A stretch of DNA of 64,000 nt from a virus. The notes beneath the pieces are model-generated. The model saw only the letters and a list, made by a program, of their open reading frames with translations, did not search any database and was not told the origin of the DNA. This document shows, piece by piece, positions 78 to 63,632 of the stretch. A program made the position numbers and the translations under genes. Each line of letters begins with the position of its first letter. The first letter of the stretch is position 1. Location of the stretch: the IMG/VR virus record IMGVR_UViG_3300045988_121070, one strand, 5' to 3'.

Positions 78-148
78 CCCAGCGGAAAACCGCTGGGCAC
101 GTTGGTTATTTATGACGGCGATGCAATCGCCTAACAATTAACGAAACA
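78..148 (+). repeat. composite palindromic element (hairpin B 78-97, hairpin A 117-131, tail TAACAATTAACGAAACA)
   Basis: cccagcgg-aaaa-ccgctggg and ggcgat-gca-atcgcc stems; same family as more than 40 other loci in the window. Confidence 0.85.
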
Positions 149-153
149 GAGAC

Positions 154-1356
154 CTAAGCCTTTTTTGAGGCATCCTTTTTTGCAGCCTTCTTAGCTGCTT
201 TCTTTTCGGCTTTCTTAGCCTCGCGAGCGGCACGTTCAGCCTCCAATTTCGGTTTGATGTTCTTTTCGCAATCCTCTTTGGCAGCTTCGAGGATGGGGAG
301 GTAAGTCTTTGCTTCCTCTTCACCAATCAGTTCTACCAATTCCTGATAGCGAGCCGTCATCGTCTCGATGCGCTTAGGCGTGTTATCCTTATCTTTACGC
401 TGGAGGTATTTCACGATATCATCGACAGCCTTTTTCTTAGCTTCCGCCTTTTCGCGAGCCTCCTTCTGTACGGGGTCAGACTCTTTAATCATTTCGATAA
501 CCTTAGCCTTGAAAGCCTCCTGGTTCTCCACCTTATCCCAATAGGGTCGAAGCGTAGTGCGGAGCGCCTTTGGATCGACCTTCTGAGCCTCGATAGACGC
601 ACGGAAAGCCGTGTCCTCCTTCAGGCGCACATATACCGTGGCCATTTCGTTGTCAACACGCTCATAAATGCCCTCCACCTGTTTAGTGAGGCGGATAGCT
701 TCTTCCGCATACGGAGCCACCTCCTGTTCAGGTTTGCCGGCGAGAGCCAGAGCCTTAGCCGTAGCGTCGGCATCCTCCTGACGAGTGCGCAAGTCGCGAA
801 TCGTCTCGATAGCATTAGCGAGGTCTGGTGACATCAGCCACTTCAGCTGGTCGAGGTGCAGCATAGTACCACCACCCATAGAGCCAGCCACTGTCTCAGG
901 AGCGGCAGCGTCGATGGTTGGGATGTCCGCCTTTTTACCGAAAAGCGTATCTTCGGCAGCCTCACGTTCCTGGCGTTCCTTTTCGGCAGCGAGGGCACGA
1001 GCAGCAGCTTCCTCCTTAGTGGGGCGGCCCACATGCGATGCGAGGAGAGCAGGGTCGGTGAGATCCACGGCAGGCACCGATGTCTTCAAGTCAGCGGTAA
1101 TCTTATCCGCATAGCGGCGGATGAGTTTCTTACGAGAAGCGTAGTCTTTGAAGCGCAGCGCCTCATTGACGAAAGCACGGCAGAAGGGGAAAGCAGCCAT
1201 GAGGTTCAGTCCCTTCTCGATCTGTTCACGTATGCCGGACGTGATGTTTCCCGCCTTTTCGATGACCGGCAGGTGTTCGGCATACCAGTTCTGGTAATCA
1301 GCGAGCCACGCCTTGCGTTCCTCTGCTGACATCTGGGTGAAATTTTTTGTATTCAT
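154..1356 (-). CDS. hypothetical protein, coiled-coil rich, with Lys/Ala-rich C-terminal tail (AKKAEKKAAKKAAKKDASKKA)
   Basis: 400-aa ORF co-oriented with the head genes; the tail resembles histone-H1-like DNA-binding repeats. Confidence 0.6.
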   Translation of the reverse strand: MNTKNFTQMSAEERKAWLADYQNWYAEHLPVIEKAGNITSGIREQIEKGLNLMAAFPFCRAFVNEALRFKDYASRKKLIRRYADKITADLKTSVPAVDLTDPALLASHVGRPTKEEAAARALAAEKERQEREAAEDTLFGKKADIPTIDAAAPETVAGSMGGGTMLHLDQLKWLMSPDLANAIETIRDLRTRQEDADATAKALALAGKPEQEVAPYAEEAIRLTKQVEGIYERVDNEMATVYVRLKEDTAFRASIEAQKVDPKALRTTLRPYWDKVENQEAFKAKVIEMIKESDPVQKEAREKAEAKKKAVDDIVKYLQRKDKDNTPKRIETMTARYQELVELIGEEEAKTYLPILEAAKEDCEKNIKPKLEAERAAREAKKAEKKAAKKAAKKDASKKA

Positions 1357-1522
1357 ACTACCTTTGTTTTTAGGCTGCTGTGCTGCAGCAGCATACTAAA
1401 CATTTAACACGATGCAAAAATAGGGGAAAATTTTTTGGAGGTGGGGACAAAAAAAAGGGATGGCGATACAATCGCCTTACAAAAGAGGGGACGAAAACCC
1501 AGCGGGGGGAATCGTTGGGCGC

Positions 1523-1558
1523 AAAAAAAAGTCCTACCGATTGCGGTAGGACCTTTTT
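1523..1558. terminator. bidirectional intrinsic terminator (A8, 9-bp stem, 4-nt loop, T5)
   Basis: gtcctaccg (1531-1539) pairs with cggtaggac (1544-1552), flanked by A8 and T5; lies just downstream of the 1581..2156 gene. Confidence 0.7.
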
Positions 1559-1580
1559 ATGAGGTGAAAACCCTAAATAA

Positions 1581-2156
1581 TTAAGGGTTCTGTGTTTGAG
1601 CAGGATTAGCAGAAGCCAGGAGTGAATCCCAACCATCGTCAGGAGCAGTGACATAGAGGTTGTCATACAATACACCATTGAGGTGGAACTCCAGTGTAGT
1701 CTGACGGTCATCAGAAGTAGCAGCGCCCGTGTCGGACTTAATACCACCCTGTTCAGCCTTTACGCGGCGGTTAGGATCGTACATAATCTGCGTGTCGCCG
1801 GTGTTGCCATCAGGAACGATGATACCGATATTCAGATTGTTCAATGCACGAGACAGCTCAGAGGTCTTCTTATTGACCGCCTCGATGATAGCATTGTAGG
1901 TGAGGTTATAGCCACCGTTGGGACCCTGGCTCTCACCTTGGATCTGCTGGCTCTCATCCTTCAGGTCGAACTTATAGAGACCCTTACCTGACTTGAACGT
2001 AGGCACAGAGTAAGTATTACCCGTCAATTTGAGTGGTGTGAGGAGGTCAGACTTCACGAAGTAGTAAGCCACCGCAGAGGTACCACCGATATTCTCCAGG
2101 CAATTTTCCTCGTTCAGGTAGTTGTCGAGGTTAGGGCATGTTACTGTATCAGCCAT
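1581..2156 (-). CDS. putative virion structural protein (gene immediately after the capsid gene)
   Basis: 191-aa ORF; position between the capsid gene and a strong terminator. Confidence 0.5.
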   Translation of the reverse strand: MADTVTCPNLDNYLNEENCLENIGGTSAVAYYFVKSDLLTPLKLTGNTYSVPTFKSGKGLYKFDLKDESQQIQGESQGPNGGYNLTYNAIIEAVNKKTSELSRALNNLNIGIIVPDGNTGDTQIMYDPNRRVKAEQGGIKSDTGAATSDDRQTTLEFHLNGVLYDNLYVTAPDDGWDSLLASANPAQTQNP

Positions 2157-2235
2157 AATCTTGAAATTTTAATATTTGACGTTTAGTGTTTATAAGTACC
2201 CAGCCGAGAGCGGCTGGGCACTATGAGAGAGGAGA

Positions 2236-3550: not shown

Positions 3551-5188
3551 TTACGCATTGATTTTTGCCATGTACTCCTTGCGGATGCGGGCATTCTCCA
3601 GAGGTGACTTTGTGTGGTCGTAAGCAGGCATACCACCCTCGGCCTTCTGTTCCTCGGCACCCTGGCCGTTGTTAGCAGGAGAGCCAGCAGGTACAGCAGC
3701 AGCAGCCGTTGTCAGTTGCTCAATCTGTCCCTTCTGGTCGGTGATGGTCTGATTAGCGGCGGCCAGTTGGTCCTTAACCTCCTTCAGTTCCTTTTCAGCC
3801 TTCTCGCGAGCAGCAATCTCAGCATTGAGTGCAGTGGTGTGCTCCTCTTTGAGCGTGTTGACAGCTTGCTCGTGTGCATCGTTCAATTCCTTCTCACGAG
3901 CAGAGACGGCATCTTTCTTAGTAGTCTCGGCCTGGCTGACTTGTGTCTTCAGACCCTCGATCAGTTTCAGAGCATCCGCCTTTTCAGTGGCGTTAGTCTC
4001 AAGTGTCTGGTTGAGTGCTTCGAGCATGTCGGGCACGAAGTGAGCGCCCTCAGCGTCCACTACCAGCTCAGGTACACCGCAAGCGGTGGCAATTTTTTCA
4101 TACTGTTTCATATTCTCATTGTTTAAGGGGTTGTTCTTTTCTCCCTCGGTGGCAGAACCACCGAGCACAGTGGCATCCGTGGCAGGAGTGGCAGCGGTGG
4201 CAGCTTCGGCTGCTGGTGCAGGTTCCTGTTCGGGTACATCATCTTCAGGAGCAACGGGAGCCACACGTTCGATAGGCTGTGCGGTGCCGTTGGCTACCTC
4301 GAAAGCACGGGTGATAACCTCTCCGAGTGTCATCTGGCCATCGCAGAGGATGCCCTTGACCTTTTCAGCCTCGAAGACCTTACCATGGATATGCTCATCC
4401 TTAGCAGCAGGAAAAGCCTTTTGGATGTCCGAGCGGAACTGTACGCCATCCTCCTTCAGTTCGTCGATGAGCACCTTATCATTCTTCGGGTCATCGGCGA
4501 GGTCACGATACCATTTGTTTTTGTCGTAGGACTCTGGATCGTAAAGTTCGTGGAACGTCTCGTTGGTGTATTTGTTGGTCGTACCGTTCTTTTCTGTGTA
4601 GAACACAGCCATGACACCGATAGAGCCAAACATGTCTTTGGGGTGCATGTAATACACCTCGTCACACTGAGAAGCCAGGTACATGGCAGCAGAGGCACAG
4701 AGACCATCGACGAAAGCATACACTTTCTGTCCGCGTTCGTGTGCATAGTCGATAGCCTGCTTAAAGTCGTTGATAGCCCAAGCGGAGCCACCAGGCGAGT
4801 TAATGACAAAGACATGTGCCTTACAGAACTCGTTATTAGCAGCCTCCATGAGCCAGTCGCGCAGATCCATCGAGCCATAGGAGCAGGCACCACCTTCGCG
4901 GGTGATAGGACCGGCCACCGGCATGACATTGACGAAAGGCGCATCCATGTCCTCCATCCACCAGCGGCTTTCTACCTTGCCTTGCTCAGTCACCTGGTAC
5001 TCCTTGATTTCGGGAGCGGCATCCTCGGCAGACTTGATGAGCTGCATGGCGTATGGCTTTTTCTTTTTGTCGAACTCCAAAGCGACGTGACCATTCAGGT
5101 TCTGTTCCCACATGGTACGAGAACCATGCACGTATTCCGGCATGATCATCCACTTCTTCGTTGACAGGATTTCTAATAGTCCATTCAT
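3551..5188 (-). CDS. prohead protease (S49/SppA-ClpP family) fused to a coiled-coil scaffold region
   Basis: VINSPGGSAWAINDF and GLCASAAMYLAS...GSIGV motifs; Ala/Pro linker followed by a long coiled-coil C-terminus, as in lambda gpC/Nu3. Confidence 0.8.
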   Translation of the reverse strand: MNGLLEILSTKKWMIMPEYVHGSRTMWEQNLNGHVALEFDKKKKPYAMQLIKSAEDAAPEIKEYQVTEQGKVESRWWMEDMDAPFVNVMPVAGPITREGGACSYGSMDLRDWLMEAANNEFCKAHVFVINSPGGSAWAINDFKQAIDYAHERGQKVYAFVDGLCASAAMYLASQCDEVYYMHPKDMFGSIGVMAVFYTEKNGTTNKYTNETFHELYDPESYDKNKWYRDLADDPKNDKVLIDELKEDGVQFRSDIQKAFPAAKDEHIHGKVFEAEKVKGILCDGQMTLGEVITRAFEVANGTAQPIERVAPVAPEDDVPEQEPAPAAEAATAATPATDATVLGGSATEGEKNNPLNNENMKQYEKIATACGVPELVVDAEGAHFVPDMLEALNQTLETNATEKADALKLIEGLKTQVSQAETTKKDAVSAREKELNDAHEQAVNTLKEEHTTALNAEIAAREKAEKELKEVKDQLAAANQTITDQKGQIEQLTTAAAAVPAGSPANNGQGAEEQKAEGGMPAYDHTKSPLENARIRKEYMAKINA

Positions 5189-5220: not shown

Positions 5221-5283
5221 TTGAATGCGTGTGATGAGAATGGGTGTGTTTTTCGAGGTGAAATGAGCGTTTTAGGGGAGGAC

Positions 5284-5427
5284 GGCGATAAAATCGCCTA
5301 ACAATAAACGAAACAAGGGCGGAGAGGCCCAGCACTAAAGTGCGGAGAACGAGAACGAAAAAGCCCCACCGAAAACGGCGGGGCGGGGTGGTAGGAGCGG
5401 GAATGGTCAACGGGCGAACCGCTGGGC
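5284..5427 (+). repeat. composite palindromic element cluster (hairpin A 5284-5298, tail, three B-type hairpins including 5364-5383)
   Basis: ggcgataaaatcgcc + taacaataaacgaaaca; ccccaccgaaaacggcgggg has an A.C mismatch on the plus strand that becomes a G.U wobble in minus-strand RNA. Confidence 0.8.
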
Positions 5428-6816: not shown

Positions 6817-6870
6817 AATTCCAATTTTATAATGCAAAGGTAAGACCCGCTGACCAAATCAGCGGGCACC

Positions 6871-7710
6871 CTATTCTTCTTCTTCGATTTTCAGTTTCAG
6901 TTCGTCACGGGTGATGTATTCGTTGCAGACAGCAGCAGGGAGGTAGGTATGGACGGTGAACGGATTAGCAGCCACGATGACCAATGTCTCACGGTTGTTA
7001 GCGCCCACCTCAGTCTGTGTGTCTTTCTTGATCCATGCGGTGACGATAGAACGAGCATCCTTGATGTCGTGTGCCCAGCAGACAAACTTACGTTTCTTGA
7101 CCCAGGCTTCTTTATTGTTGGTACCATCCACCCACATGTCAGCACGGGCATAGGTAGCCTGTACCTTGAACGGCATCTTTACAGGTGCATCCTTATCCTT
7201 TTCCAATGCCTCCTTTTCAGCCTGGATGTCAGCAGCTGTACGTCCGATGAAGGTGAGGTTGTCGAGCATTTCCACATCAAGGATATGGAATGAGGAAACA
7301 TGTTCGCCAAAGACCTCTTCTGTGGCACCCTCGGTGTAGTCGGTGGCAAGGTCGATAGCCTGGCGCATAGACTCCGCACGGCAGATAACCACACCCGTCT
7401 TAGAGCCGGATGACTTCATGGTGACTTTGACATGCACGAGGCGATAGAACTGGCGCAGTTCCTCGGCGCGTCCTGGAGTATTGGTGACGACGATTTCCTT
7501 GATGCCGTACTCCTCGATGTCCTTTACCATTTCAGAGTCCACGCGGGAGTCACGGTCATAGAGCACCTGGCTACGTTCGATGCTGATGATTTCCTGTGTG
7601 TCTTCATCCACAAAGTCCTCCATCCATTTCTTGCAGACATGTTCTGCGAGGAACATACCGATGCCGTCCTTTGGTGCGACGGTCTTTTTGAGATAATCTT
7701 TTCTGAGCAT
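6871..7710 (-). CDS. hypothetical protein
   Basis: 279-aa ORF followed by a B-type hairpin. Confidence 0.55.
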   Translation of the reverse strand: MLRKDYLKKTVAPKDGIGMFLAEHVCKKWMEDFVDEDTQEIISIERSQVLYDRDSRVDSEMVKDIEEYGIKEIVVTNTPGRAEELRQFYRLVHVKVTMKSSGSKTGVVICRAESMRQAIDLATDYTEGATEEVFGEHVSSFHILDVEMLDNLTFIGRTAADIQAEKEALEKDKDAPVKMPFKVQATYARADMWVDGTNNKEAWVKKRKFVCWAHDIKDARSIVTAWIKKDTQTEVGANNRETLVIVAANPFTVHTYLPAAVCNEYITRDELKLKIEEEE

Positions 7711-7755
7711 AACTGTTATTATTAGGACCCAGCCGAGAACGGCTGGGAGGGGTTG

Positions 7756-7917
7756 CTATTCCTTGTTGCGGTGGCAGAATGCCTCACACCACATACGGCG
7801 GTTGACTGTTTCGCCCGTTGTGGGGCAGAAATAGCCACGCGGTTTTTTCGGTTCGCTGTTGGCGCATGTGGTGCAGTTGGTCGTTTCGGACCATCCATTG
7901 ACTATTGTTTCATTCAT
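7756..7917 (-). CDS. small Cys-rich (zinc-finger-like) protein, 53 aa
   Basis: MNETIVNGWSETTNCTTCANSEPKKPRGYFCPTTGETVNRRMWCEAFCHRNKE; its ATG overlaps the stop of the upstream gene (ATGAATGA). Confidence 0.4.
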   Translation of the reverse strand: MNETIVNGWSETTNCTTCANSEPKKPRGYFCPTTGETVNRRMWCEAFCHRNKE

Positions 7918-8299
7918 AGAGTTTCTTCATTGCGTTACCCAATTCCTGTATGGCGGAAATGGTTTTTGTTATGGGTTTCTCGTTGGGAGAATCAGCGAGC
8001 ACTATTTTTTTCTGACAGAAGTCGGCAACGGCTTTTTCGAGACATGCGCCACGCGAAGTTTCGTAGTCTTTCATCAGATAGATAGCCTTGCAGAAGAATG
8101 CGAGGATCATGCAGTCGATGAATACCTGGAAACGATAAGGCATGATAGAGAAGAGCGGCTGGAACCAGCCGAACATCGTGGTAGGATTGACGGGTGTGTA
8201 GCCCAAGCAAAACACGATGTATTCTGCCATTCCAAAGCGATCCAGATAGTCGGTAGTGCCGGTGATGGGACCTGAGATATAGATACGGGGACGTTTCAT
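7910..8299 (-). CDS. DUF4406-like (nucleoside 2-deoxyribosyltransferase-like) protein
   Basis: N-terminal RIYISGPITG... and later ETSRGACLE resemble the IYIAGPmtG / S.Ga..E pattern of that family. Confidence 0.45.
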   Translation of the reverse strand: MKRPRIYISGPITGTTDYLDRFGMAEYIVFCLGYTPVNPTTMFGWFQPLFSIMPYRFQVFIDCMILAFFCKAIYLMKDYETSRGACLEKAVADFCQKKIVLADSPNEKPITKTISAIQELGNAMKKLYE

Positions 8300-8694
8300 A
8301 GAGACATATCTTTAGACATTAACATAGAGAGACCAGCAACAATATCAAGAGCAGCTTCCATCATCTGTACGCCACCATGCAGGATTTGTGTGTAATAGGA
8401 AAGTTCCTTAAACTCTGGTGTATCTTTATCCATTGTTTTCAGTTTCTCAGCCATCTGCTTCAATGCAGTTGTAAGGAAACTTTTAGGCACTGATATATCC
8501 TTTAGGCATAGACTCAGTTGGCAGACATACATCAAGTAATCTGGCTTTGGCATAGAGACTGCAGGCTGCTGTTCTTTCAGCCGTTTGTAGTCTTGCAGCC
8601 AGGAGGCGAGTTGAGCATGGTCTAAGCCACACTCAGAGTCGGCGAGGATGTCGGCTTCGTCTATGCAGTGTTGTATTGCTTCGTCGAGTGTCAT
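8296..8694 (-). CDS. hypothetical protein
   Basis: 132-aa ORF with a 4-nt overlap to the next gene. Confidence 0.5.
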   Translation of the reverse strand: MTLDEAIQHCIDEADILADSECGLDHAQLASWLQDYKRLKEQQPAVSMPKPDYLMYVCQLSLCLKDISVPKSFLTTALKQMAEKLKTMDKDTPEFKELSYYTQILHGGVQMMEAALDIVAGLSMLMSKDMSL

Positions 8695-8701: not shown

Positions 8702-8929
8702 TTATTTAGGGCAGCGATAGTATCGCTGCATACGGGACAATATTTTGTTTGTTTCTATCTCCAGTAGGTTAGCGACAGCCTGGTCACGAGTGGTAGCATA
8801 GCGAAAACGCTGTTTGCATCGCGAGCACTCGTAAAAGTGCTGTGTCTTTTTGTCGTAGTGGTGTACTTCGATAGGATGCAGCTTGTGACCGAGGATGATA
8901 CAGAGAACACGATGCCAATTCATATCCAT
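8702..8929 (-). CDS. small Cys/His protein; its 3' end runs into a palindromic element
   Basis: 75-aa ORF; hairpin A + CATACGGGACA at 8711-8741 encodes the last residues (RMQRYYRCPK). Confidence 0.45.
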   Translation of the reverse strand: MDMNWHRVLCIILGHKLHPIEVHHYDKKTQHFYECSRCKQRFRYATTRDQAVANLLEIETNKILSRMQRYYRCPK

Positions 8930-11994: not shown

Positions 11995-12049
11995 GGGATT
12001 TTGAGGTTTTAAAGTCGCGATAAAATCGCGACATACAAGAAACGGGACA

Positions 12050-14010: not shown

Positions 14011-14029
14011 ATTACTTTTGGTTATTAGA

Positions 14030-14085
14030 CCCCGCCGTTCTCGGCGGGGCATGGGTTATTGTTTTGTATCGGCGACAGAATCGCC
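14030..14085 (-). repeat. composite palindromic element, the only clearly inverted copy
   Basis: ccccgccg-ttct-cggcgggg (14030-14049) and ggcgacagaatcgcc (14071-14085); the latter lies inside the 3' end of the radical-SAM gene (LGDSVADTKQ). Confidence 0.7.
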
Positions 14086-15394: not shown

Positions 15395-15453
15395 TGTTGT
15401 AAGATATTAAGAAATTGATACTATTGAGAGCCAGCCGAGAGCGGCTGGGCACT

Positions 15454-45923: not shown

Positions 45924-45968
45924 GGACGGCGATGCAATCGCCTTGCAACAAACGAAACATTGAGAGCT

Positions 45969-47201: not shown

Positions 47202-47248
47202 GACGATACCATCGTCTGACAATGGACGAAACATTAAATAATTGAAAA

Positions 47249-51743: not shown

Positions 51744-51810
51744 TAGGGTTGCGATAGAATCGCAACATACAAGAAACGGAACATTCACCAATTCATTAAA
51801 ACATTAAATT

Positions 51811-53284: not shown

Positions 53285-53867
53285 TTTAGCAGACGTGCCG
53301 GCATTTGATACGACGAAGGTGTATCTAATTAAGCCGTCGATAGACCACCCTATTGTGCCTGGGCAGCCGGTGCCGATGTCGAACGTAATAGAGCTGCATA
53401 ACGTCAAGGTGACTCCTTCTGTCTTTATAGAGCCAGAAATGGTAGCGCCGAAAGTGGAGGTGCCAAAGGAGCCTTTTAGCATAAGCGTGAATGTGAAGCA
53501 CTACTTCAGTAAAGCGGATAAGAAGAGGATTAAGAGAATGTTCTTTAAAAAGGTGCGATTGCCGAGGAAGTTGAAGAAGGCGTATAGAAAGATGACTATC
53601 CGCGACATGGATCCACATGTGGAACTGGGAGGTGAAAAGAATGGTAACGACGTGAAAATTACCATGAGCAGTTATCTGGGCATGAAGCATGGCTATAAGC
53701 GCACGAAGTGGGTTAATAAGGCTTTCTGCCACTTTAAAAAGATGCACAAGGCATGGGAGGAGCGCACAACGAAGCAGATGCAGGAGTACATGAAGCAGCA
53801 GGCAGTGGAAATGGTTGTGACGAAAGAGCAACAGGTGCGGCTGGCGGACATGCTAAGGAAGAAATGA
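53250..53867 (+). CDS. hypothetical basic protein (start uncertain, alternative ATG at 53271)
   Basis: 205-aa Lys/Arg-rich ORF. Confidence 0.45.
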   Translation: MKNLKPGMLTYDLADVPAFDTTKVYLIKPSIDHPIVPGQPVPMSNVIELHNVKVTPSVFIEPEMVAPKVEVPKEPFSISVNVKHYFSKADKKRIKRMFFKKVRLPRKLKKAYRKMTIRDMDPHVELGGEKNGNDVKITMSSYLGMKHGYKRTKWVNKAFCHFKKMHKAWEERTTKQMQEYMKQQAVEMVVTKEQQVRLADMLRKK

Positions 53868-53914
53868 GGACGGCGATAAAATCGCCTGACAATAAACGAA
53901 ACAAAAATTGAGAC

Positions 53915-54916
53915 ATGCTGATAGGACTGGTGGACGTGGACGGACACGCCAAGAAAAAGAAATGGGGTGCAACGATATACCCCAACCTCGCACTCGCTAA
54001 GATAGCGAGGTACTGGAGAAATAGGGGGGGGCAAATTGAATGGGCCACTCCCATGAAGCATTACGACATCATATACATGTCAAAGGTGTTTAACTTTTCG
54101 CCTGACGATACCTATATATATAATGCCGACGAGATAGTGAAAGGCGGGACGGGCTATGACCCTACGAGCCAGTTGCCGGAGGAGATAGACCGTCTGCAGC
54201 CGGACTACTCGATATACCCCAACGTGCCGAAAGATACTGCCTACGGATTTCTGACGAGAGGATGCCCGAACAGGTGTAAGTGGTGTGTGGTGCCCAGAAA
54301 AGAGGGTGCCATACGTCCGTATATGGATGTAGATGAGATAGCCATTGAGGGCAGGCGAAAGTTGGTGCTGATGGATAACAACATCTTAGCGGCAGGCGAC
54401 TACTGCATGGAGCAGTTGGAGAAGATCATTGAGAGAGGGTATAGGGTGGACTTTAACCAGGCTCTCGATGCGCGACTGGTGACTGACGAGGTGGCACAGC
54501 TGCTGGCGAGGGTGAAATGGCTTGATAACAACCGCATCCGCTTTGGGTGTGACACGCACGGACAGATAGCGGAGTGTGAGCGGGCTATGGCGCTCATCAA
54601 CAAGTATGGCTTCACGGGGCAGTATTTCCTTTATACGATGCTGACGGATGACTTCAGGGAGTGTTACGAGCGGATAGTGTATTGGTGGCACAGAACGCAA
54701 GAGACGCGGGCCAATCATCATGGGAGGTACGTCTATCCCCATGCACAGCCCTACCGTGACCCGATGAATCCCAACCACCACATACCACAATGGCAAAAGG
54801 ACATGGCGGGATGGGTAAATAAGAAGGCGCACTTTGTGGCGCACTCGTTTGAGGACTTTGAGCCGAGGAAAGGGTTTAGGTGTAAGCAGTACCTGAGAGA
54901 GGCAGGGATAATATAG
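53915..54916 (+). CDS. radical SAM protein with an N-terminal extension, carrying an in-frame G8 run
   Basis: FLTRGCPNRCKWCVVPRKEG (CxxxCxxC); G8 at 54024-54031 encodes RGGQ. Confidence 0.7.
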   Translation: MLIGLVDVDGHAKKKKWGATIYPNLALAKIARYWRNRGGQIEWATPMKHYDIIYMSKVFNFSPDDTYIYNADEIVKGGTGYDPTSQLPEEIDRLQPDYSIYPNVPKDTAYGFLTRGCPNRCKWCVVPRKEGAIRPYMDVDEIAIEGRRKLVLMDNNILAAGDYCMEQLEKIIERGYRVDFNQALDARLVTDEVAQLLARVKWLDNNRIRFGCDTHGQIAECERAMALINKYGFTGQYFLYTMLTDDFRECYERIVYWWHRTQETRANHHGRYVYPHAQPYRDPMNPNHHIPQWQKDMAGWVNKKAHFVAHSFEDFEPRKGFRCKQYLREAGII

Positions 54917-54919
54917 GGC

Positions 54920-54985
54920 GGCGATGCAATCGCCGGACAATGGACGAAACAAACGAGAGGCCCAGCCGAGAACGGCTGGGCTTCT
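54920..54985 (+). terminator. composite palindromic element at the convergence point of the plus and minus blocks (A 54920-54934, tail, B 54961-54980 + cttctgtt)
   Basis: lies between convergent stops at 54916 and 54987; likely a bidirectional terminator. Confidence 0.55.
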
Positions 54986-54986
54986 G

Positions 54987-55604
54987 TTATTTGCATAGGA
55001 AGTAGCGGGCGACGAGGAAGATGAGGACACCGAGGATGCCAAAGAGGGCGATGTAACCCAGATGGAGGACTAAGCCATCCCACCACGACTGAATGCGGGA
55101 GGGCGCTGGTTCTTTATATGATTGCTGATTGAGGGAGTCGAGCCAGTTGACCTGTTGGAGCATGTAGAGGGCTTCTGAGAGGGAGTCGGTACGGGCCGTT
55201 TCCTGTGATAGCTGCTGTTGGAGAGCAGAGATCTGTTGCTCGTAGCGGAGTTCTGTCTGGCGGGAAAGGTTGCGGTCGATGGTGCGGTTTTCCTGACGTA
55301 CCTCACGGCCAAGGGAGTCGAGGTAGGTAGTGACGGACTCCTGAATGCGCTCAGTGGACTGTTCCTGTGTGGACTGCTGGGCGGTGATGCGAGCCTGCAT
55401 CTGGGAGAAGAGGGAGTCGTAGCGGGAGAGCTGCTGTAACATGGCTGCATACTGGACTTGCAAGGCACGGAGGCTGTCACCTTCGCTATGGGTGACAGTG
55501 GTGGTGGCGGTGCGAGACGTTGTGCAGGAGAGCACGGAGAAGACACAGAGGGCTGCTATCATATAGCAGCACACGAAACGAGGGAAGAGTGATTTTTTTG
55601 ACAT
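54987..55604 (-). CDS. candidate unimolecular spanin (N-terminal lipoprotein signal, coiled coil, C-terminal TM anchor)
   Basis: MSKKSLFPRFVCCYMIAALCVFSVLSC... lipobox-like LSC; Gln-rich coiled coil; ...LVLHLGYIALFGILGVLIFLVARYF; -7 box TACCTTTG (plus-strand caaaggta, 55631-55638). Confidence 0.4.
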   Translation of the reverse strand: MSKKSLFPRFVCCYMIAALCVFSVLSCTTSRTATTTVTHSEGDSLRALQVQYAAMLQQLSRYDSLFSQMQARITAQQSTQEQSTERIQESVTTYLDSLGREVRQENRTIDRNLSRQTELRYEQQISALQQQLSQETARTDSLSEALYMLQQVNWLDSLNQQSYKEPAPSRIQSWWDGLVLHLGYIALFGILGVLIFLVARYFLCK

Positions 55605-55834
55605 GGCTATAATTGCTTTGATTACTGAGGCAAAGGTAGGGAGAATGGGCGAGAACATGGGGACAAAGAAGGAGACGGCGATGGAATTGCCGAGCAAGAG
55701 ACGAAGCGAGACCCAGCGCTAAAGCGCGGGGCATAGAACGAAAAGCCCCACCGAGAACGGCGGGGAGTAGTGGAGGGGTTCATGGTCGCTATGGCATAGC
55801 GACATGCCAAACAAAGGGGTAAAAAAGCGTAACT

Positions 55835-58110: not shown

Positions 58111-58974
58111 TTATTCGGGATTTTGGGTTTTGATGAGTTCGGAAACGAAGTCGCGGTAGTCGTGAGAGGCGGTACATTCGGGGGCATAGGTGAAGATATC
58201 CTCATGCTGGAACTGGCTTTCGCCTACCTTGACACACTGACGTATGCGCGTCTTAAAGATAGTGGTGTCGTACTGGTCGCGGAGGTAGTCGGTAGTCTCA
58301 CGAGCCAGTCGGGTGCGCTCGTCGGCCATGACAATGAGCAAGCCCCGCATATCGAGGTCGGCATTGAGTTTGCGCTTGACATTCTTGTAGGCTTCGACCA
58401 TGCGGCCAATGCCATCGACTGAGAGCGAGCCGAGCTGCACGGGGATGATGACACCAGAGGCGGCAGCGAGCGCGTTGAAGGTGAGTTCGGAGAGTGCGGG
58501 GGCACAATCGATAAGCACATAGTCGAAGGTGTCTTCAATGTATTCGCCATCGAGTGCCTTTGCACCGAGGTAGAGGTGGTCCATGTCGAAGATGTCATTG
58601 CCAAAGAGTGACGAGAGCACCAGCTTGGACTGCATCTGACGATGGAGGTCAGGGTCGATGTCGGACAGTCCAGCAGAGGCAGGGACATAATAGAGACCCT
58701 TGCGAGACTGATAGACAGGCAGGTGGTTGTTGTCGCCATCGCGGAGCGCATCGGCTACGGTGAGAGTGGTGAGGTTCTTAGCGTGGTACTCCTTCATCTT
58801 ATCGCGCCAGCCGAGGAGGGAAGAAAGATTGCCCTGCGGGTCGAGATCGATGCAGAGAATGCGCAGACGGCTGTTGCGCCGAAGAAGACCGGCAGCGACG
58901 TTCTGAACGGTGGTGGTTTTGGCTACCCCACCCTTGTTGTTGGCGAATGCCAGGATTTCTTTAATACGTGCCAT
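58111..58974 (-). CDS. parA: ParA/Soj-family partition ATPase
   Basis: deviant Walker A NNKGGVAKTTT, LLVLIDCAP-like DYVLIDCAPAL; -7 box TAACTTTG (plus-strand caaagtta, 59003-59010). Confidence 0.85.
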   Translation of the reverse strand: MARIKEILAFANNKGGVAKTTTVQNVAAGLLRRNSRLRILCIDLDPQGNLSSLLGWRDKMKEYHAKNLTTLTVADALRDGDNNHLPVYQSRKGLYYVPASAGLSDIDPDLHRQMQSKLVLSSLFGNDIFDMDHLYLGAKALDGEYIEDTFDYVLIDCAPALSELTFNALAAASGVIIPVQLGSLSVDGIGRMVEAYKNVKRKLNADLDMRGLLIVMADERTRLARETTDYLRDQYDTTIFKTRIRQCVKVGESQFQHEDIFTYAPECTASHDYRDFVSELIKTQNPE

Positions 58975-59138: not shown

Positions 59139-59957
59139 CTAACGGTGGCCATAGTCTTCGGGAGCTATACCCTGGGCGGCATTATTGGCGGTGGCCTCCT
59201 TGATGGTGCGTATCATGCCATAGTCGGCAGCGCCTTGTGGCGCTTTGGAGTGAAGCAGATCGGGGCGACGGCTGGGGTCAATGAAGGTATGACCGAGGCC
59301 ACGTTTGCGAGGCATCCAGGGACGGAGGTCGGGATCGTAAGGGTCAATCCAGGAATCGAGGGGTTGGATATCTGAGAACTGAGAGGCACGAGCACGACGA
59401 TCGGCGCGGTCGTAGATATTCTGTGCCCACTGCATCATGGAGTCGAGCGTGGCGAGGATGCCATTGTCGCCGAGCCATTCGGGATCTTCATCAGGAAGCG
59501 GCTGGAGGCAGCCTACGAGTTCGAGATAGACATTAAGACCAGGCACCTTGCAGACGATGCGCGGCTCATCGAGTTCTTCGTCATAGACACGTCCCTGCTG
59601 TTCGATGAGCTGACGGATGGTGATGTCCTGACGGTCGGCCTCGATACGATTGCGGAACGCCTGCTGGCGCTGCTGGAGGTATTCGACGCGGGACTGTTCC
59701 TCACGTTCGGCCATGGCCACCAGTTTAGGGTTGTCGGTGCGTCCGGCAGCTGCTGCTGTCTTGAAGCCGTGGATCTTGCAAGTGATATAAGGCGGACGGG
59801 TGCTGATGATGCAGTCGCCGAGGTCGGAACGCTGCTGATACTTAGTGACGATGAAGGGTGCATGGAACTGCATACCCGACATGAAGTGCTGACTATACTG
59901 TGAGAGTTCGCCATCCCAGATGGGGTTGGGCTGAACGGTGTTGAATTGATTTTCCAT
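59139..59957 (-). CDS. hypothetical protein
   Basis: 272-aa ORF. Confidence 0.5.
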   Translation of the reverse strand: MENQFNTVQPNPIWDGELSQYSQHFMSGMQFHAPFIVTKYQQRSDLGDCIISTRPPYITCKIHGFKTAAAAGRTDNPKLVAMAEREEQSRVEYLQQRQQAFRNRIEADRQDITIRQLIEQQGRVYDEELDEPRIVCKVPGLNVYLELVGCLQPLPDEDPEWLGDNGILATLDSMMQWAQNIYDRADRRARASQFSDIQPLDSWIDPYDPDLRPWMPRKRGLGHTFIDPSRRPDLLHSKAPQGAADYGMIRTIKEATANNAAQGIAPEDYGHR

Positions 59958-60005: not shown

Positions 60006-61640
60006 CTATACGCGGAGGGTGCCGGCTATGAGGGGCAGACAGAAGACGGCAGCACCCAGGACTACTGCACCAAAACAACAGAGGACTGCAGCACAGGCGA
60101 CAGTGGCGAGGACTGCGGCGGTGGTGCTATGGTGAGGAGTGGCGGGTTCCTCGGTGGGAGAACCACCGAGCGCTGTGGTAGGAGCGGCTTCTTCGTCAGA
60201 GGCGGCAGGGGTAGCGGGGGCGGGAGCTTCGTCGGAGAAGAGAGAGGGGGCGAGCCAGGCTTCTTCCTCTTCGTCATCGGTGGCGATAGTATCGCCACAT
60301 ACGGGACAATCGGCGGGGGCTTCGTCAGAGGCGGAAGATAAGGGGTTATTTTCCGTAACATTGTCCCCTACCCCAGCCGAGAGCGGCTGAGAGGGAGCGA
60401 CGGCAGAGCCATCGCCTACGGAGGAAACAGGAGCGCCGGCAGAGGCTATAACACGATAGACCTTGGGGGTAATGTCGTTTGACAGACCCACCTCGATGGT
60501 GGCACCTGGATAGATGCCGAGGTCGTTGGCTGTCTTCTCTGAATAGAGGGAGGCGGAATGTACTTCGCGGTAGAGGAGGGTCACAGAGTCGAAGTAGGCC
60601 ACGGGTGTACGCTTGCCACTCTTTCCGACCGTCACCTCTATGCGGCGGCAGGTGGTGATGGCCTTAGCGGGTGCGAACTTATAAGCGATAGAGCCGTGAG
60701 GATGGTGTGCGGTGGCACCGAGGGCGCGGAAATAGTCATCGTGCATGATGCGGAAGACGATACCATCAACGGGAAAGTCGAAAGCGGCACGTTCTGCCTC
60801 GCGTTTCTCCAGGAGCTGTTGAACATCGTCGAGGGTGTGGGCGGTCCATACTTCTGGACGGTGGATGAAGCAAAGGCGGTGGAGGAAGTCGAACTTATGC
60901 CAGGGGTAGCCGAGCGGGGTGCAAGAAAACTGAATCTGACTGCTGATAGCGTCGTCGATATAGGCATCCCAGGGGATGAAGTCGAGCATGGCGAGGTCGA
61001 TAGCGTCTGGTACAGACTGGTTGCAGAGAGCGGAAGCTGCTGTGCGGCAATCGGTGTAACGAGTGGAAAGGAGGTGGAGGTTGCGCTTGCTGCAGACAAT
61101 TTCGCCACGTACCTCGATACGACCGGCGAGGGAGTAGGTGGCACCCGTCTCGCGGAGCTGCTGAGGGATGGAGGGGATGCAGAGGGCATGGGCGGTGATG
61201 TCCTGCCCTACCCTACCATCGCCACGAGTGGCGGCGCTGATGAGTTGGCCATCCTGATATACGAGAGAGCATGAAATGCCGTCGTACTTCCACATGGCTA
61301 CGAGCTTGTAACCGCCAGTGTGGTTGTCGCCGGTGAGGGCGTTCATGCGCTGGTTGGTCTTGTTGATCCATGAAGCAACCTTCTGAATGTCCTGAGCCTT
61401 CTGACAGGAGAGCATGGGGGTGCGGTGAGCGATACGGCCATTGCCATTGAGGTCGGAGCCTACCTGCTGGGTGGGACTGTCTGGGAGGATGTGTGAGGGA
61501 TTGAGGCGTTCGTACTGCTCGATCTGAGCGACGAGGGCATCAAACTCGGCATCGCTCACAACGGGAGCGGATGCGACGTAGTACATGTGGGAGTAGTAGT
61601 TGGCGCGGCCAACGGCGTTGATGTAATCTGAATGTGTCAT
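60006..61640 (-). CDS. ligA: NAD-dependent DNA ligase (adenylation + OB domains) with a non-canonical low-complexity, hydrophobic C-terminus
   Basis: Ia domain YYVASAPVVSDAEFDALVAQIE, adenylation Lys in MWKYDGIS; no HhH/BRCT recognisable; palindromic element at 60279-60389 is in frame. Confidence 0.8.
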   Translation of the reverse strand: MTHSDYINAVGRANYYSHMYYVASAPVVSDAEFDALVAQIEQYERLNPSHILPDSPTQQVGSDLNGNGRIAHRTPMLSCQKAQDIQKVASWINKTNQRMNALTGDNHTGGYKLVAMWKYDGISCSLVYQDGQLISAATRGDGRVGQDITAHALCIPSIPQQLRETGATYSLAGRIEVRGEIVCSKRNLHLLSTRYTDCRTAASALCNQSVPDAIDLAMLDFIPWDAYIDDAISSQIQFSCTPLGYPWHKFDFLHRLCFIHRPEVWTAHTLDDVQQLLEKREAERAAFDFPVDGIVFRIMHDDYFRALGATAHHPHGSIAYKFAPAKAITTCRRIEVTVGKSGKRTPVAYFDSVTLLYREVHSASLYSEKTANDLGIYPGATIEVGLSNDITPKVYRVIASAGAPVSSVGDGSAVAPSQPLSAGVGDNVTENNPLSSASDEAPADCPVCGDTIATDDEEEEAWLAPSLFSDEAPAPATPAASDEEAAPTTALGGSPTEEPATPHHSTTAAVLATVACAAVLCCFGAVVLGAAVFCLPLIAGTLRV

Positions 61641-61697
61641 AATTGTTTTCTGTTTTTTAGTGAAACGGTGAATAACTGGGGGTGGTATAACGGGAGG

Positions 61698-62528
61698 TTA
61701 GTCGGAGATCATACAGTCGAGAGCGAGGGTGTAATTCCAAGTGTCGTATGAATAGTGAGAGACGTGGCGGTCTAACAGTTCGTAGTAGCTGATATCGTAA
61801 GTAGAAGTGCGGATAAACTCGTTATCGCCAACCTCTTTGTCTTCGATTTCCTTAACCTTCTCGAAGAGTGCATGGGCGGCCATGTCTTCAACCATTTCGT
61901 CAGATGCGGTCTCGCGGAGGAAGTCGGCATACTCTTTGAATGAGCCAAAGGTAAGGGCGTTGTCATCGCGATTTTCCAGGATATTCTGGAAGTCGTATAA
62001 CTCGTAGGCTGTGCCCTGAGACTCCCAGAGCTGCCAGCCATCCTTGCGACGGAGCGATACAACCTCTACGCCATAGAGTTCGGCCATACGTTCCATGCTC
62101 TCGAAGGTGGCATCCTTATCATTCAGGAGGACACAACCACGAAGGCCACGGGGATAGCCATTCATACCCTCTGTAATCTCGGCACACTCTAAATCGTAAT
62201 CGTCTGCAATCATGTCGCGGAGGTCGTAGCTGCTGGTGATGTAGTTGTCGGGGTCGATAGCCAGGCAAATGAAGTCATTACCACGGAAGAGCGTCCAGAT
62301 GTCACAGTCGGAGTGCTCAGAACGAAAATTCTGGTCGGCCACGTCTTCGTCATCGTCGGCGGTATTGTAAGCCAGAAGAGACAGGCGGAGTTCGCGGAAG
62401 TCGTCTTCAGAAGTATAGGCACCACCCTCGGAGCTGTTGGCTACCATGTAGTAAGGAACAGAACCACCCTGACGAATGGTATTCAAAACTGCGTTTACCA
62501 CTTTATAAAAATCTGCTGAATGTTTCAT
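61698..62528 (-). CDS. acidic hypothetical protein
   Basis: 276-aa ORF, Asp/Glu rich; ATGAAT-type leader repeats at 62541-62572. Confidence 0.5.
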   Translation of the reverse strand: MKHSADFYKVVNAVLNTIRQGGSVPYYMVANSSEGGAYTSEDDFRELRLSLLAYNTADDDEDVADQNFRSEHSDCDIWTLFRGNDFICLAIDPDNYITSSYDLRDMIADDYDLECAEITEGMNGYPRGLRGCVLLNDKDATFESMERMAELYGVEVVSLRRKDGWQLWESQGTAYELYDFQNILENRDDNALTFGSFKEYADFLRETASDEMVEDMAAHALFEKVKEIEDKEVGDNEFIRTSTYDISYYELLDRHVSHYSYDTWNYTLALDCMISD

Positions 62529-62578
62529 AGTTGTATGTTTTAATGAATTGATGATTTGATGAATGTATGAATGAATAA

Positions 62579-62995
62579 TTAGATTTGCCAGCGGTTTTCG
62601 AGGTAGTCCCAGATGGCTTTTGCATCGAGGTCAGTCAGTGACTGCCAGTTGCGGGCTGCATCCTGTTCGCGCTCAAAGTCGGCACGGTCATTCGCCAGGC
62701 ACTTGTTATAGGCTTCGAGGTCTTCGGGATCTGCATCGTCGCCAGGCTCATCGTCGGCCCATGAGCTAAACAGGTTCTCCCACTCATCGAAACTGGTAAC
62801 GTCTGTACCCAGCGTTACTAACGACAGAGCTGCATCGAGCAACAGTCGGGCGTAGTCTTCTTCTGTCTCAAAAGAGCACTCAGTATTGACTGCATCAGAT
62901 AGCACGAAGTGGCCACGTTCTAACGCTACGGTCATGGTGTCGCCCTGAACGGTGACTTCCAGTTGGTTGTTGAAATTGTCGATTGTTACTTTCAT
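62579..62995 (-). CDS. small highly acidic hypothetical protein
   Basis: 138-aa ORF; -7 box TATCTTTG (plus-strand caaagata, 63057-63064). Confidence 0.5.
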   Translation of the reverse strand: MKVTIDNFNNQLEVTVQGDTMTVALERGHFVLSDAVNTECSFETEEDYARLLLDAALSLVTLGTDVTSFDEWENLFSSWADDEPGDDADPEDLEAYNKCLANDRADFEREQDAARNWQSLTDLDAKAIWDYLENRWQI

Positions 62996-63232
62996 ATTCT
63001 TTGTTTATTTGTGAGGGCTGACCCTCGGTTATACATATTGTTTATGTTTTACGTTGCAAAGATACGAATATATTTTGATACTACCAAATATTTTTCGAGA
63101 AAAATTTGATTTTTGGCGAAAATTTTTTGTTTTAGGGGAAATTTCCCGCTATTTTCCGCTATTTTCCGCTACGGTCGCTATGACATAGCGACATACGGAA
63201 CAGGCCCAGCCGAGAACGGCTGGGAGTGGTGG

Positions 63233-63577
63233 CTACTGGGCAGGATGTGTGGCAGCCCAGTAGTCGGCAGCTGCTTGGAGGCAGTCGCGGAGAATGGCGG
63301 CGACATGCTGGTAGTTCTGGCGGGTGATGGGGATGGTGGGGTGCTCATCGGAACCACCACCGGCCTGAATAGCCACGAAGTCGGTGCGCCCTGAGACGGT
63401 GGCTACTCCCCCACCCCGCTTGTTGAGCGCTTCGAGAATGAGGGAGCGTTGAGAGTCGGGTGTGGGGATAATCTGGACGTTCATCCAGGGGTATTCGTTG
63501 GCGGTGAGCAACGGGTACTGATGGCCGTGGTCGCCGGTGGCTGTGGAGAGGGTGAATGTGTAGGGATAGTGTGACAT
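63233..63577 (-). CDS. hypothetical protein
   Basis: 114-aa ORF flanked by B-type hairpins (63205-63224, 63596-63615). Confidence 0.45.
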   Translation of the reverse strand: MSHYPYTFTLSTATGDHGHQYPLLTANEYPWMNVQIIPTPDSQRSLILEALNKRGGGVATVSGRTDFVAIQAGGGSDEHPTIPITRQNYQHVAAILRDCLQAAADYWAATHPAQ

Positions 63578-63632
63578 GATGTTTTCTGATTTAGTCCCAG
63601 CCGAAAGCGGCTGGGAGGTGTGGATATTATGA

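Follow-up and report, generated by a model that had tools for sequence, protein, structure and literature searches.

Small palindromic repeats, some of them read in frame within genes, are already known. Repetitive extragenic palindromes (REPs) and Rickettsia palindromic elements (RPEs) occur in both orientations in bacterial chromosomes, and how they spread is still debated, especially for families that have no transposase; the RPE units measure about 100-150 nt. Single-strand initiation signals (ssi; G4-type signals, ssiA/ssiB of RSF1010) and the single-strand origins (sso) of rolling-circle plasmids combine a strand-specific single-stranded DNA (ssDNA) hairpin with an unpaired start region and are read by a primase or an RNA polymerase, while the PeSL (promoter early stem-loop) cassettes of T4-type phages are short stem-loops found repeatedly beside genes where the genome is plastic, and are tied to gene shuffling. 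REPs lie between co-directional or convergent open reading frames (ORFs), with some inside ORFs, can supply stop codons, and include CGTC-type families without a dedicated transposase (PMC3733652). IS200/IS605 elements move by single-strand 'peel and paste', reading hairpins on one strand, making no target-site duplication and taking an orientation that follows replication, and the Y1 transposases act on the lagging-strand template (PMC6006769). Here we describe a 64,000-nt stretch of viral DNA (IMG/VR record IMGVR_UViG_3300045988_121070; hereafter the window) that carries two covarying hairpin families, A and B, which are locked to one strand independently of transcription, are linked to strand skew and turn over rapidly, including by in-frame insertion. 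The carrier is an uncultured phage (or phage-plasmid) lineage of Prevotella/Bacteroidales with a genome of ~104 kb. As far as our searches reach, the phage setting, the two co-oriented families, the absolute one-strand rule independent of transcription and the lack of a transposase are new, and we found no earlier description of these repeats or of this phage group in the literature.

The original prediction had read the repeats as a single composite palindromic element. The repeats are real, and stronger than had been noted, but they form two separate families, whose members occur singly or joined as A-tail-B or B...A. In all, 27 A copies and about 38 B copies lie in the window, or ~65 copies per 64 kb, in units of about 24-50 nt (Table 1). 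In A, a stem of 6-8 bp that ends in (C/T)GAT closes a 3-nt loop whose sequence is free, and an unpaired, conserved ACAA..ACGRRACA tail follows. The consensus of subtype A1 is GGAC-GGCGATnnnATCGCC-TnnCAAnnnACGAAACA and that of A2 is GG-GYNGCGATnnnATCGCNRC-ATAC(AAGAA)ACGGGACA, the ACGRRACA block standing at a fixed spacing to the hairpin in A1 and in A2 copies with the long tail. B has a 7-9 bp GC-rich stem, mostly CCCAGCSG/CSGCTGGG (also CTCGGTGG, CCGACGG, CTCGATGG and GCTGGCAG), a (G)AGAA loop, a 5′ flank T-TAG-GA (TTAGGA) and a 3′ flank CAC(N)GTGG or AGTGG. The pattern CCCAGCSG-N4-CSGCTGGG with ≤2 mismatches matched 18 times against 0.07 expected. Compensatory changes were present in 6/8 stem pairs of A and in 6/6 pairs of B, with 91% and 96% of cells paired, respectively, and 0/500 shuffles matched the score of either family. 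Folding as ssDNA gave the hairpins as drawn, with the A tail unpaired.

We scanned both strands, with filters off, using covariance models for A (R1) and B (R2). R1 returned 26 full-length A matches of 31-49 bits, all on the plus strand, plus a weak one at 43968; on the minus strand it found only mirror images of the bare stem (≤20 bits). R2 returned about 38 B copies on the plus strand and, on the minus strand, only 14018 and 33312, both with flipped 4-5 nt loops, and the mirror image of the copy at 18695. Both models were seeded with plus-strand copies chosen by eye, making the seed scores partly circular, and strand-neutral hairpin and k-mer scans provide the independent check. The tail ACGRRASA occurs 40 times on the plus strand of the window and twice on the minus strand, B k-mers are one-sided (for example AGCCGAGA, 17 and 0), and the A core GCGATnnnATCGC has 17 sites. 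Twenty-five of the 27 A loci first listed were recovered; the one at 43972 is weak (18.7 bits), that at 39864 is too degenerate to detect, and one copy absent from that list lies at 55548-55587 (41.5 bits). The only locus reported as inverted, 14030-14085, keeps its flanks (TTAGA...CAT) in plus orientation: the 4-nt loop alone is flipped, orthologues have AGAA, and the second hairpin there (14062-14100) is a plus-oriented B variant. At five loci in all, hairpin loops of 4-5 nt are exactly reverse-complemented between relatives that are 95-98% identical, with stem and flanks unchanged (18700-18721, 54960-54981, 14030-14049, 33312-33334 and 63595-63616); the flips are small hairpin-mediated inversions.

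The same orientation rule extends beyond the window. Pattern scans of IMG/VR yielded 82 loci from 39 related contigs, and close-relative pieces (loci L070, L014, L126, L025, L036, L002 and L057) together tile the remainder of the genome, giving a composite ~104-kb genome. Each of the 39 contigs showed one orientation (A 170/170, B 212/214, both B exceptions being loop flips), and A and B were always co-oriented with each other. All pieces tiling the composite genome were co-oriented with the window, with a tally of roughly 42 sites for A and 53 for B, all on a single strand, and no mixed orientation was found in the window or its relatives. The polarity proposed earlier, set by the DNA strand and not by transcription, is therefore valid over the composite genome and the 39 contigs. 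Genes are minus-strand at 1-39.2 kb and 55-64 kb and plus-strand at 39.4-54.9 kb, and ~80% of the genome is minus-coded. In the window, A copies occupy 5 spacers between plus genes, 3 plus/minus junctions, 10 spacers between minus genes and 6 positions within minus genes, all in plus orientation. The plus block has the order stop codon, hairpin, tail, start codon, and the minus block reads the same element backwards. B is scarcer in plus-strand units, yet it is plus-oriented there as well (window 39829, 43816 and 43861; L014 4939). In this respect the elements differ from PeSL, which follow transcription and include a promoter, whereas A and B ignore transcription and also occur inside genes.

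Measured against REPs, the phage elements share the format of GC-rich imperfect palindromes of 20-40 nt in high copy, with several families per genome. They also lie mostly between co-directional or convergent ORFs and sometimes inside ORFs, the element end often gives a stop codon (here TAG/TAA in the TTAGGA flank of B), and, like CGTC-type REPs, they come without a dedicated transposase. However, their carrier is a phage genome and not a bacterial chromosome, and A has a long conserved unpaired tail. B has no GTAG/CGTC tag; GACG, the reverse complement of CGTC, stands at the stem foot of 7/13 A1 and 0 A2 copies. Inverted pairs (bacterial interspersed mosaic elements, BIME, or REP doublets forming hairpins, REPIN) are lacking in the window and the 39 contigs, where all copies are head-to-tail on one strand, and no REP-associated tyrosine transposase (RAYT) was found in the phage ORFs scanned. 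The phage elements fail several defining REP features.

Orientation tracks the sign of GC skew. Skew is positive on the element strand throughout the window, whatever the gene direction, and likewise in all large contigs; locally it was positive at 153/169 A flanks scored (14 negative) and at 168/199 B flanks (28 negative). In L068, a more distant contig, the sign of the skew and the orientation of the elements change together, on two weak matches and where gene direction changes too. Recent substitutions do not mark the plus strand as the deaminated one: comparing the window with contig 3300045988_102483, with 3300026549/3300038674 as outgroup, the polarised changes in minus-strand genes, read on the plus strand, were G>A 191 vs C>T 56 and A>G 101 vs T>C 41. 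Pyrimidine transitions on the coding strand were ~3 times as frequent in minus-strand genes, at odds with a simple expectation from positive GC skew.

Relatives show both presence/absence of copies and in-frame insertion. Whole elements are absent from orthologous sites at A20509, B18700 and B32036, half-elements remain at A53872 and B40203, and families are swapped where the A2 copy at 41836 of the window is matched by B in three relatives; the copy at 5284 is also replaced. Gain, loss, half-deletion and swap all fall within 3-15% sequence divergence. In the ketosynthase of P0009/L100, 94-97% identical, 11 extra residues (SVCGDGIATPS) represent a clean 33-nt in-frame insertion of an A2-type hairpin in plus orientation beside the resident B copy. 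Compared with FabB crystal structures, the resident copy in turn adds 8 residues immediately ahead of the catalytic His strand. The ketosynthase of the window departs from FabB by a further insertion, of 10 residues (VGSGYAAANG region), 7 of which are missing in the relatives 88-92% identical. At the stop codon of the ligase, L009 carries 50 nt of inserted A+B sequence. The clean insertions show no evident target duplication. A census of indels by megablast among close relatives kept too few long indels inside high-scoring segment pairs to be informative.

The three B copies described as having an A.C mismatch (near 5374, 28727 and 55746) exist and have the sequence CCCCACCG-RAAA-CGGCGGGG in common; an imperfect stem, CCCCACCG/CGGCGGGG, present at three loci indicates that imperfect copies are propagated, as copies of a copy. 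In relatives 84-91% identical, mismatch and gap rates were 0.103 and 0.164 for A copies in spacers, 0.109 and 0.126 for B copies in spacers, and 0.109 and 0.031 for other spacer DNA; the corresponding values were 0.301 and 0.088 for A copies in genes, 0.205 and 0.048 for B copies in genes, and 0.230 and 0.004 at third codon positions. Spacer copies thus have the substitution rate of other spacer DNA but a gap rate of 13-16% as against 3%, and in-gene copies change at about the rate of third codon positions, which indicates that turnover is high and that individual copies are under no extra purifying selection. A lone tail, ACGAAACA, after the stop codon of 47249..48076 (window 48060-48090) is the remnant of a 49-nt deletion relative to L065; the deletion ran between two adjacent A hairpins having GCGATAGA in common, indicating recombination between neighbouring copies.

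About 20 copies lie within ORFs and about two thirds of all copies are non-coding. The proteins read through in frame include the ketosynthase, the ligase, the protease (ATVLGGSATEG), an HNH endonuclease and the tail protein. In-frame reading was also confirmed in the ketosynthase (ATVPSGSPLGPG), the ligase (CPVCGDTIA and PSQPLSAG), the product of 39372..40166 (PQPRTAGSS) and that of 40426..41286 (PSGSPAG and PPSRSRI); a PSGSPAAP peptide ascribed to a ribbon-helix-helix (RHH) gene could not be located in the window. As with RPEs, palindromes here sit in frame in protein genes and add short peptides in loops or linkers, the protein not being destroyed. The phage units differ in being 24-50 nt long, in their phage host and in their strictly single-strand orientation, and they have no sequence relation to RPEs, as judged without a direct comparison. 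The NAD ligase (60006-61640) continues beyond its OB fold into a low-complexity linker of ~145 residues made largely of A and B elements, and it ends in a hydrophobic, Cys-rich segment resembling a membrane helix. Mechanical ORFs running across hairpins (7722-7898, 18262-18504, 26533-27144, 27310-27528 and 55622-55783) encode low-complexity peptides rich in Pro, Ser and Arg; these short ORFs are probably not genes.

What kind of element would behave in this way? Our leading explanation, held tentatively, is that A and B are REP/RPE-like selfish mini-elements of about 31-50 nt, strand-specific ssDNA hairpins that settle in spacers and in tolerant protein linkers. New copies would be made, or would survive, on one strand only, the elements being handled as ssDNA hairpins; a strand-specific ssDNA enzyme would read the hairpin together with its unpaired 3′ tail or flank. 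The exposed strand would be set by a one-directional asymmetry, that is, unidirectional or rolling-circle replication, in a use of strands akin to that of IS200/IS605 and REPs on the lagging-strand template. Once in place, the hairpins would be tolerated and probably co-opted as cistron spacers. The one-strand hairpins and the clean insertions without evident duplication recall IS200/IS605 elements and palindrome-associated transposable elements (PATEs). By contrast, no TnpA was found in the ORFs scanned, there is no pair of similar subterminal hairpins, A and B having unrelated stems and being found alone, and no conserved target tetranucleotide emerged from 3-5 clean events.

Several observations weigh against a selfish mini-element. 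The original prediction had noted that no transposase was visible in the window, and this extends to the rest of the genome: Pfam and PHROGs searches of ~130 ORFs (window and rest-of-genome pieces) gave no Y1/HUH transposase, Rep, relaxase or integrase, although many of these ORFs match nothing and a novel enzyme is conceivable. Among the same ORFs there was no match of the PF01797 type (REP-associated Y1), and PDB sequence searches with the ORFans found no transposase. Because the stems of the two families are unrelated, either two enzymes would be required or a single one able to recognise A as well as B. Stem covariation could stem from hairpin-templated repair and not from selection. No donor copy of the 33-nt ketosynthase insertion was present in the window or in 171 loci, and the 3-5 clean events allowed neither a conserved target site nor a duplication to be defined. 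As to which strand is exposed, the long-term skew and the spectrum of recent substitutions, with more C>T on the minus strand, point different ways.

A host REP family as the source was also considered and rejected, and this too counts against a selfish mini-element. Subclasses of Y1 transposases specific to Bacteroidetes exist (PMC6006769). In 5-6 contigs of Prevotella/Bacteroidaceae metagenome-assembled genomes (MAGs) the exact B 20-mer is present, singly or in short tandems, between ordinary chromosomal genes, host-type flank variants gave 4 matches in JGI metagenome contigs, and no A element was seen in the host loci except in L093, a phage-like contig. The host thus does not appear to be the obvious reservoir of the elements. 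At the host loci (L083-L085, L092 and L098), B lies 12-15 nt past a stop codon, with TTCT as the sense-strand loop, and its neighbours are genes for a glycoside hydrolase and a pectate-lyase-like lipoprotein or for a CapA-like protein and an M13 peptidase; L092 has three tandem copies.

A distributed polar replication signal, in which A would be a single-strand initiation site for a phage primase that recognises the hairpin and begins synthesis a few bases to its 3′ side, in the manner of G4-type ssi signals or RSF1010 ssiA/ssiB, seems to us unlikely, though it accounts for the conserved tail and consensus. Redundant sites of this kind would tolerate turnover, selection acting on orientation and density and not on single copies. 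The strict one-strand orientation genome-wide, co-oriented with GC skew, fits such a signal, as do the A tail that stays unpaired in ssDNA folds with ACGRRACA at fixed spacing (A1 and A2-long), a consensus kept in a lineage only 67-77% identical, and a mean A spacing of about 2.4 kb. The phage encodes two primase-type proteins (16394..17386, BT4734_N + PriCT_2, and 33968..37615, D5-like), a sliding clamp and the NAD ligase. The architecture of A, a strand-specific hairpin with an unpaired tail, matches that of ssi and sso signals, but in architecture only, and those signals occur once or twice per replicon at origins as against 40 or more here. Spacing is also irregular, with clusters of 3 in 270 nt and gaps of 6-7 kb, copies are no better conserved than neighbouring spacer DNA, and in-frame copies within enzymes look parasitic. 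Taken as a Chi-like polar motif in its own right, the tail octamer is not convincingly enriched, with 8 occurrences outside A on the plus strand and 0 on the minus strand against Markov-3 expectations of 4.9 and 3.1. In-gene copies and the missing conservation are left unexplained by a polar signal.

We regard as distinctly unlikely that the elements are in essence RNA punctuation, namely terminators or attenuators, processing sites or 3′-end stabilisers whose common orientation reflects common descent, while a secondary RNA role is probable for some copies. Hairpins sit just after stop codons or 16-20 nt before start codons, the same B hairpin stands between co-directional host genes in the Prevotella MAGs, and REPs are known to act in RNA (PMC3733652). 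However, A copies run sense to the genes of the plus block but antisense to those of the minus block, their tail being conserved to the same degree in both, B keeps the 'wrong' orientation in plus-strand units, and about 20 copies are in ORFs. The claim that the hairpins are not terminators alone stands, and intrinsic terminators were rejected as their identity: a T run follows on the plus strand in only 2/38 B (18700 and 54960, at convergent or 3′ positions) and 0/26 A copies, and a minus-sense U run is present at 2 B and 1 A. TAnnTTTG, a promoter motif typical of Bacteroidetes, occurs in promoter-like form upstream of several window genes, and at L014 4400-4500 an A-B composite sits between two such divergent motifs, in a spacer apparently free of transcription. 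Among the single-transition mismatches of the B stems, G>A on the plus strand was seen at 15 loci vs C>T at 3, mostly giving G.U in minus-strand RNA, which had been taken to hint at RNA folding. This hint fails because substitutions in minus-strand genes carry the same roughly 3:1 bias (191 vs 56; hand-calculated binomial p about 0.3). An Rfam scan of the window matched no family beyond a chance-level RsmY (E = 0.15). N4-type hairpin promoters were likewise rejected: their 5-7 bp stem and 3-nt loop suit A in size, but in place of a conserved purine A has a variable base at the centre of the loop, no giant RNA polymerase (vRNAP) was found, and promoters so oriented would transcribe 80% of the genome in the antisense direction.

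Still more doubtful, and to our mind very improbable, are site-specific single-strand nick sites or HUH nic sites, comparable to the interruptions in one strand of T5 virion DNA and sealed by the phage ligase. The restriction to one strand, the hairpin with a conserved unpaired 3′ block, which is the architecture read by relaxases and Rep proteins, and the encoded NAD ligase would suit them; but no HUH or nickase candidate was found in the scanned ORFs, the known nick sites of T5 and LUZ24 type are short motifs that lack a hairpin, and high turnover and in-gene copies would go unexplained. Native protein motifs (a CPxC zinc knuckle, Pro/Ser/Gly linkers) or chance are refuted, even though CPVCGD resembles a zinc-knuckle half-site and linker-like peptides occur in several proteins, by the non-coding two thirds, the DNA-level covariation, counts far above shuffles, the single CxxC that the ligase holds, the ketosynthase segment that is an insertion relative to FabB and the polymorphic 11-aa segment next to it.

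The phage itself has no close relative in GenBank: the window had no megablast match in the phage collection, and tblastn with the primase-helicase reached at best ~20% identity, to a Polaribacter phage. The lineage abounds in metagenomes, where many of its contigs measure 100-107 kb; the closest, IMGVR_UViG_3300045988_102483 (103.7 kb), is collinear and 95-98% identical, and others are about 86-90% identical. Gene content, taken from domain assignments, is included in Table 1. The ParA gene suggests, as far as gene content can tell, a phage-plasmid lifestyle. Between the tail gene and the replication genes, 18976-20477 encodes the FabB-like ketosynthase together with an acyl carrier protein (PP-binding), an auxiliary pair that is unusual in a phage.

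An iteron-like array, ATTTTCCGCT ×3.1 at 63090-63171, lies beside an AT-rich palindrome and the A/B pair 63170-63236 and is indel-polymorphic among relatives; a 21-nt unit, TAGGGGTAAAAAAGCGTAACCC, is repeated three times at 57684-57748, ~360 nt downstream of the parA stop codon. Both arrays are candidate origin or partition sites. Tandem octamers, ATGAATTT / TTTATGAA, in 3-6 copies (window 20476-20505, 59050-59097 and 62532-62570; L014 3960-3995), stand directly upstream of the starts of minus genes 20214..20477, 59139..59957 and 61698..62528, and their copy number varies between relatives. The window also has 21 homopolymer tracts of 7-11 C or G (9773-54031, densest at 27206-30897), concentrated among small methyltransferase-like ORFs; they read A-G(7-11)-CAA(A/T) on the coding strand and TTG-C(n)-T on the opposite one, follow gene direction, unlike the hairpins, and could be slippage-prone. 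A ~117-bp segment (window 13276-13392, near the 3′ end of minus ORF 13183..14052) recurs as 80-85% identical repeats in several related loci and twice in L036 (L036:2356-3699, 4044-4153, 4512-4629 region), beside an RVT_1 gene (E = 3.9e-7). This arrangement looks like a diversity-generating retroelement (DGR) with its variable repeat (VR) in the window. The lineage encodes a DGR-type reverse transcriptase and HNH endonucleases, with no link to the hairpins; hairpins of DGR targets were rejected as the identity of B, the VR-like repeat at 13276-13392 having no B downstream and roughly 38 B copies lying elsewhere.

Table 1. Hairpin copies and selected genes of the window (scores in bits, model R1 for A and R2 for B; numbers with L denote loci of related contigs)
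Feature	Coordinates	Strand	Score	Remarks
A1, GGCGAT-gca-ATCGCC + TAACAATTAACGAAACA tail	111..150	+	44.4	5 nt after stop of minus gene 154..1356
A1, degenerate tail	1456..1495	+	37.7	
A1	5278..5317	+	48.6	different hairpin in its place in L045/L024
A2, short tail ATACGGGACA	8707..8741	+	39.6	16 nt upstream of minus gene 8296..8694 start
A2, long tail	12010..12049	+	39.0	
A2, stem CGCTAT..ATAGCG	18480..18519	+	30.9	
A1	18780..18819	+	47.6	
A1	20503..20542	+	42.5	orthologous site empty in L015/L008
A1, T.G in stem	26998..27037	+	39.7	
A2, stem GCTGTCAT..ATGACAGC	27257..27291	+	32.7	
A2	28226..28260	+	39.4	in frame CPVCCDTIA, minus ORF 28001..28282
A2	30802..30836	+	34.4	in frame CPVCCDTIA, minus ORF 30640..30987
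A2, long tail	33232..33271	+	41.6	16 nt upstream of sliding-clamp start
A1	40162..40201	+	42.0	directly after stop of plus gene 39372..40166
A2	41830..41869	+	37.2	plus-gene spacer; B hairpin at same site in L021/L040/L013
A1	42342..42381	+	41.1	plus-gene spacer
Degenerate A	43968..44007	+	18.7	inside plus gene 43438..45171 (HicA fusion)
A1	45922..45961	+	44.9	plus-gene spacer
A1	47196..47235	+	37.3	overlaps stop of plus N6/N4 methyltransferase gene
A2, long tail	51744..51783	+	40.8	plus-gene spacer
A1	53866..53905	+	49.4	plus-gene spacer; 17 nt of hairpin deleted in L004
A1	54914..54953	+	48.7	convergent gene junction
A2-like	55548..55587	+	41.5	in frame RFVCCYMIAAL, lipoprotein signal peptide
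A1, G.T in stem	55671..55710	+	39.4	
A2-like	55781..55820	+	33.9	
A2	60276..60310	+	36.6	in frame CPVCGDTIA, NAD ligase C-terminal linker
A2	63170..63204	+	34.4	followed by a B element
B	72..109	+	42.1	compensatory G/C stem swap vs orthologues
B	2193..2230	+	34.2	minus-gene spacer
B, stem CTCGGTGG	4139..4177	+	32.0	in frame ATVLGGSATEG, protease linker
B, CCCCACCG/CGGCGGGG variant, A.C mismatch	5358..5395	+	23.7	
B-like, stem CCCGCTGA	6840..6878	+	21.7	
B	7722..7759	+	39.9	17 nt upstream of minus gene 6871..7710 start
B, loop flipped to TTCT	14024..14061	+ (flanks)	21.3 on minus, 12.3 on plus	AGAA in orthologues
B variant, TCGGCGA-cagaa-TCGCCGA + GCACACTG	14062..14100	+	22.1	
B	15424..15461	+	32.3	
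B	18440..18477	+	35.9	
B, 9-bp stem + T run	18695..18732	+	30.7	terminator-like; loop flipped in L012; absent L015/L008
B	19352..19389	+	43.5	in frame ATVPSGSPLGPG, ketosynthase; 8-aa insertion vs FabB
B	20546..20583	+	33.4	
B	20763..20800	+	30.8	in frame, 1938-aa tail (tape measure-like) gene
B	21095..21133	+	28.8	in frame, 1938-aa tail gene
B	21158..21196	+	26.9	in frame, 1938-aa tail gene
B	27034..27072	+	27.2	
B	28152..28189	+	37.8	PSRSRLG in ORF 28001..28282
B	28190..28225	+	26.7	SSGSPAG in ORF 28001..28282
B, A.C mismatch, CCCCACCG-aaaa-CGGCGGGG	28721..28752	+		identified from sequence
B	28753..28791	+	34.5	
B	30764..30801	+	40.4	PSRSRLG in ORF 30640..30987
B, stem CTCGATGG	31385..31422	+	35.8	in frame, HNH endonuclease; compensatory changes in L021
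B	32036..32074	+	30.4	entire unit absent from orthologous L018 spacer
B	33273..33310	+	34.6	
B-type, flipped loop TTTCC	33312..33334	+	17.7 on minus	loop GGGAA in L047
B, stem GCTGGCAG	33995..34033	+	32.9	in frame, near primase-helicase C-terminus
B	38273..38310	+	34.1	16 nt upstream of exonuclease gene start
B	39829..39866	+	30.8	in frame PQPRTAGSS, plus gene 39372..40166, + orientation kept
B	40196..40234	+	26.6	25 nt deleted in L026/L016
B	40744..40782	+	31.7	in frame PSGSPAG, minus gene 40426..41286
B-like	43816..43853	+	26.7	plus gene 43438..45171
B-like	43861..43899	+	23.8	plus gene 43438..45171
B, 9-bp stem + T-rich run	54955..54992	+	30.4	convergent junction; loop flipped in L004
B, A.C-mismatch variant	55740..55777	+	25.6	
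B	60144..60182	+	34.2	in frame ALGGSPTE, ligase C-terminal linker
B	60366..60403	+	19.4	in frame PSQPLSAG, ligase C-terminal linker
B	63199..63236	+	39.0	directly after A 63170-63204
B	63590..63627	+	33.9	17 nt upstream of minus gene 63233..63577 start; loop differs in L070
Head maturation protease	3551..5188	minus block		
Second primase-type protein	16394..17386			BT4734_N + PriCT_2
FabB-like ketosynthase and adjacent acyl carrier protein				
Tail protein				1938 aa, PhageMin_Tail domain, tape measure-like
Sliding clamp	32071..33219			
D5-like primase-helicase	33968..37615			
HicA fusion protein	43438..45171	+		
DNA methyltransferases, C5 and N6/N4 types		+ (N6/N4)		
ParA	58111..58974			
NAD ligase, 3'-5' exonuclease, ThyX, radical-SAM proteins				

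It is rather unlikely, in our estimate, that the elements will prove to be a genome-wide polar ssDNA signal, with A hairpin and tail as a primase, nicking or loading site, or else a new phage-borne ssDNA mini-transposon moved by an enzyme without a recognisable HUH or Y1 domain; if true, a polar signal system would be a multi-copy 'ssi' system of a kind so far undescribed in dsDNA phages. For annotation, peptides of the CPVCGDTIA and PSGSPLG types in the proteins of these phages should be taken as repeat-derived, and gene callers may be misled by the repeats in hairpin-spanning ORFs. With hundreds of near-complete ~104-kb genomes in public metagenomes, the lineage amounts to a natural experiment, and population metagenomes could catch insertions in progress and define where they go. 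The strand rule offers a direct way of asking whether the elements follow replication, for example through ssDNA transposition or priming signals.

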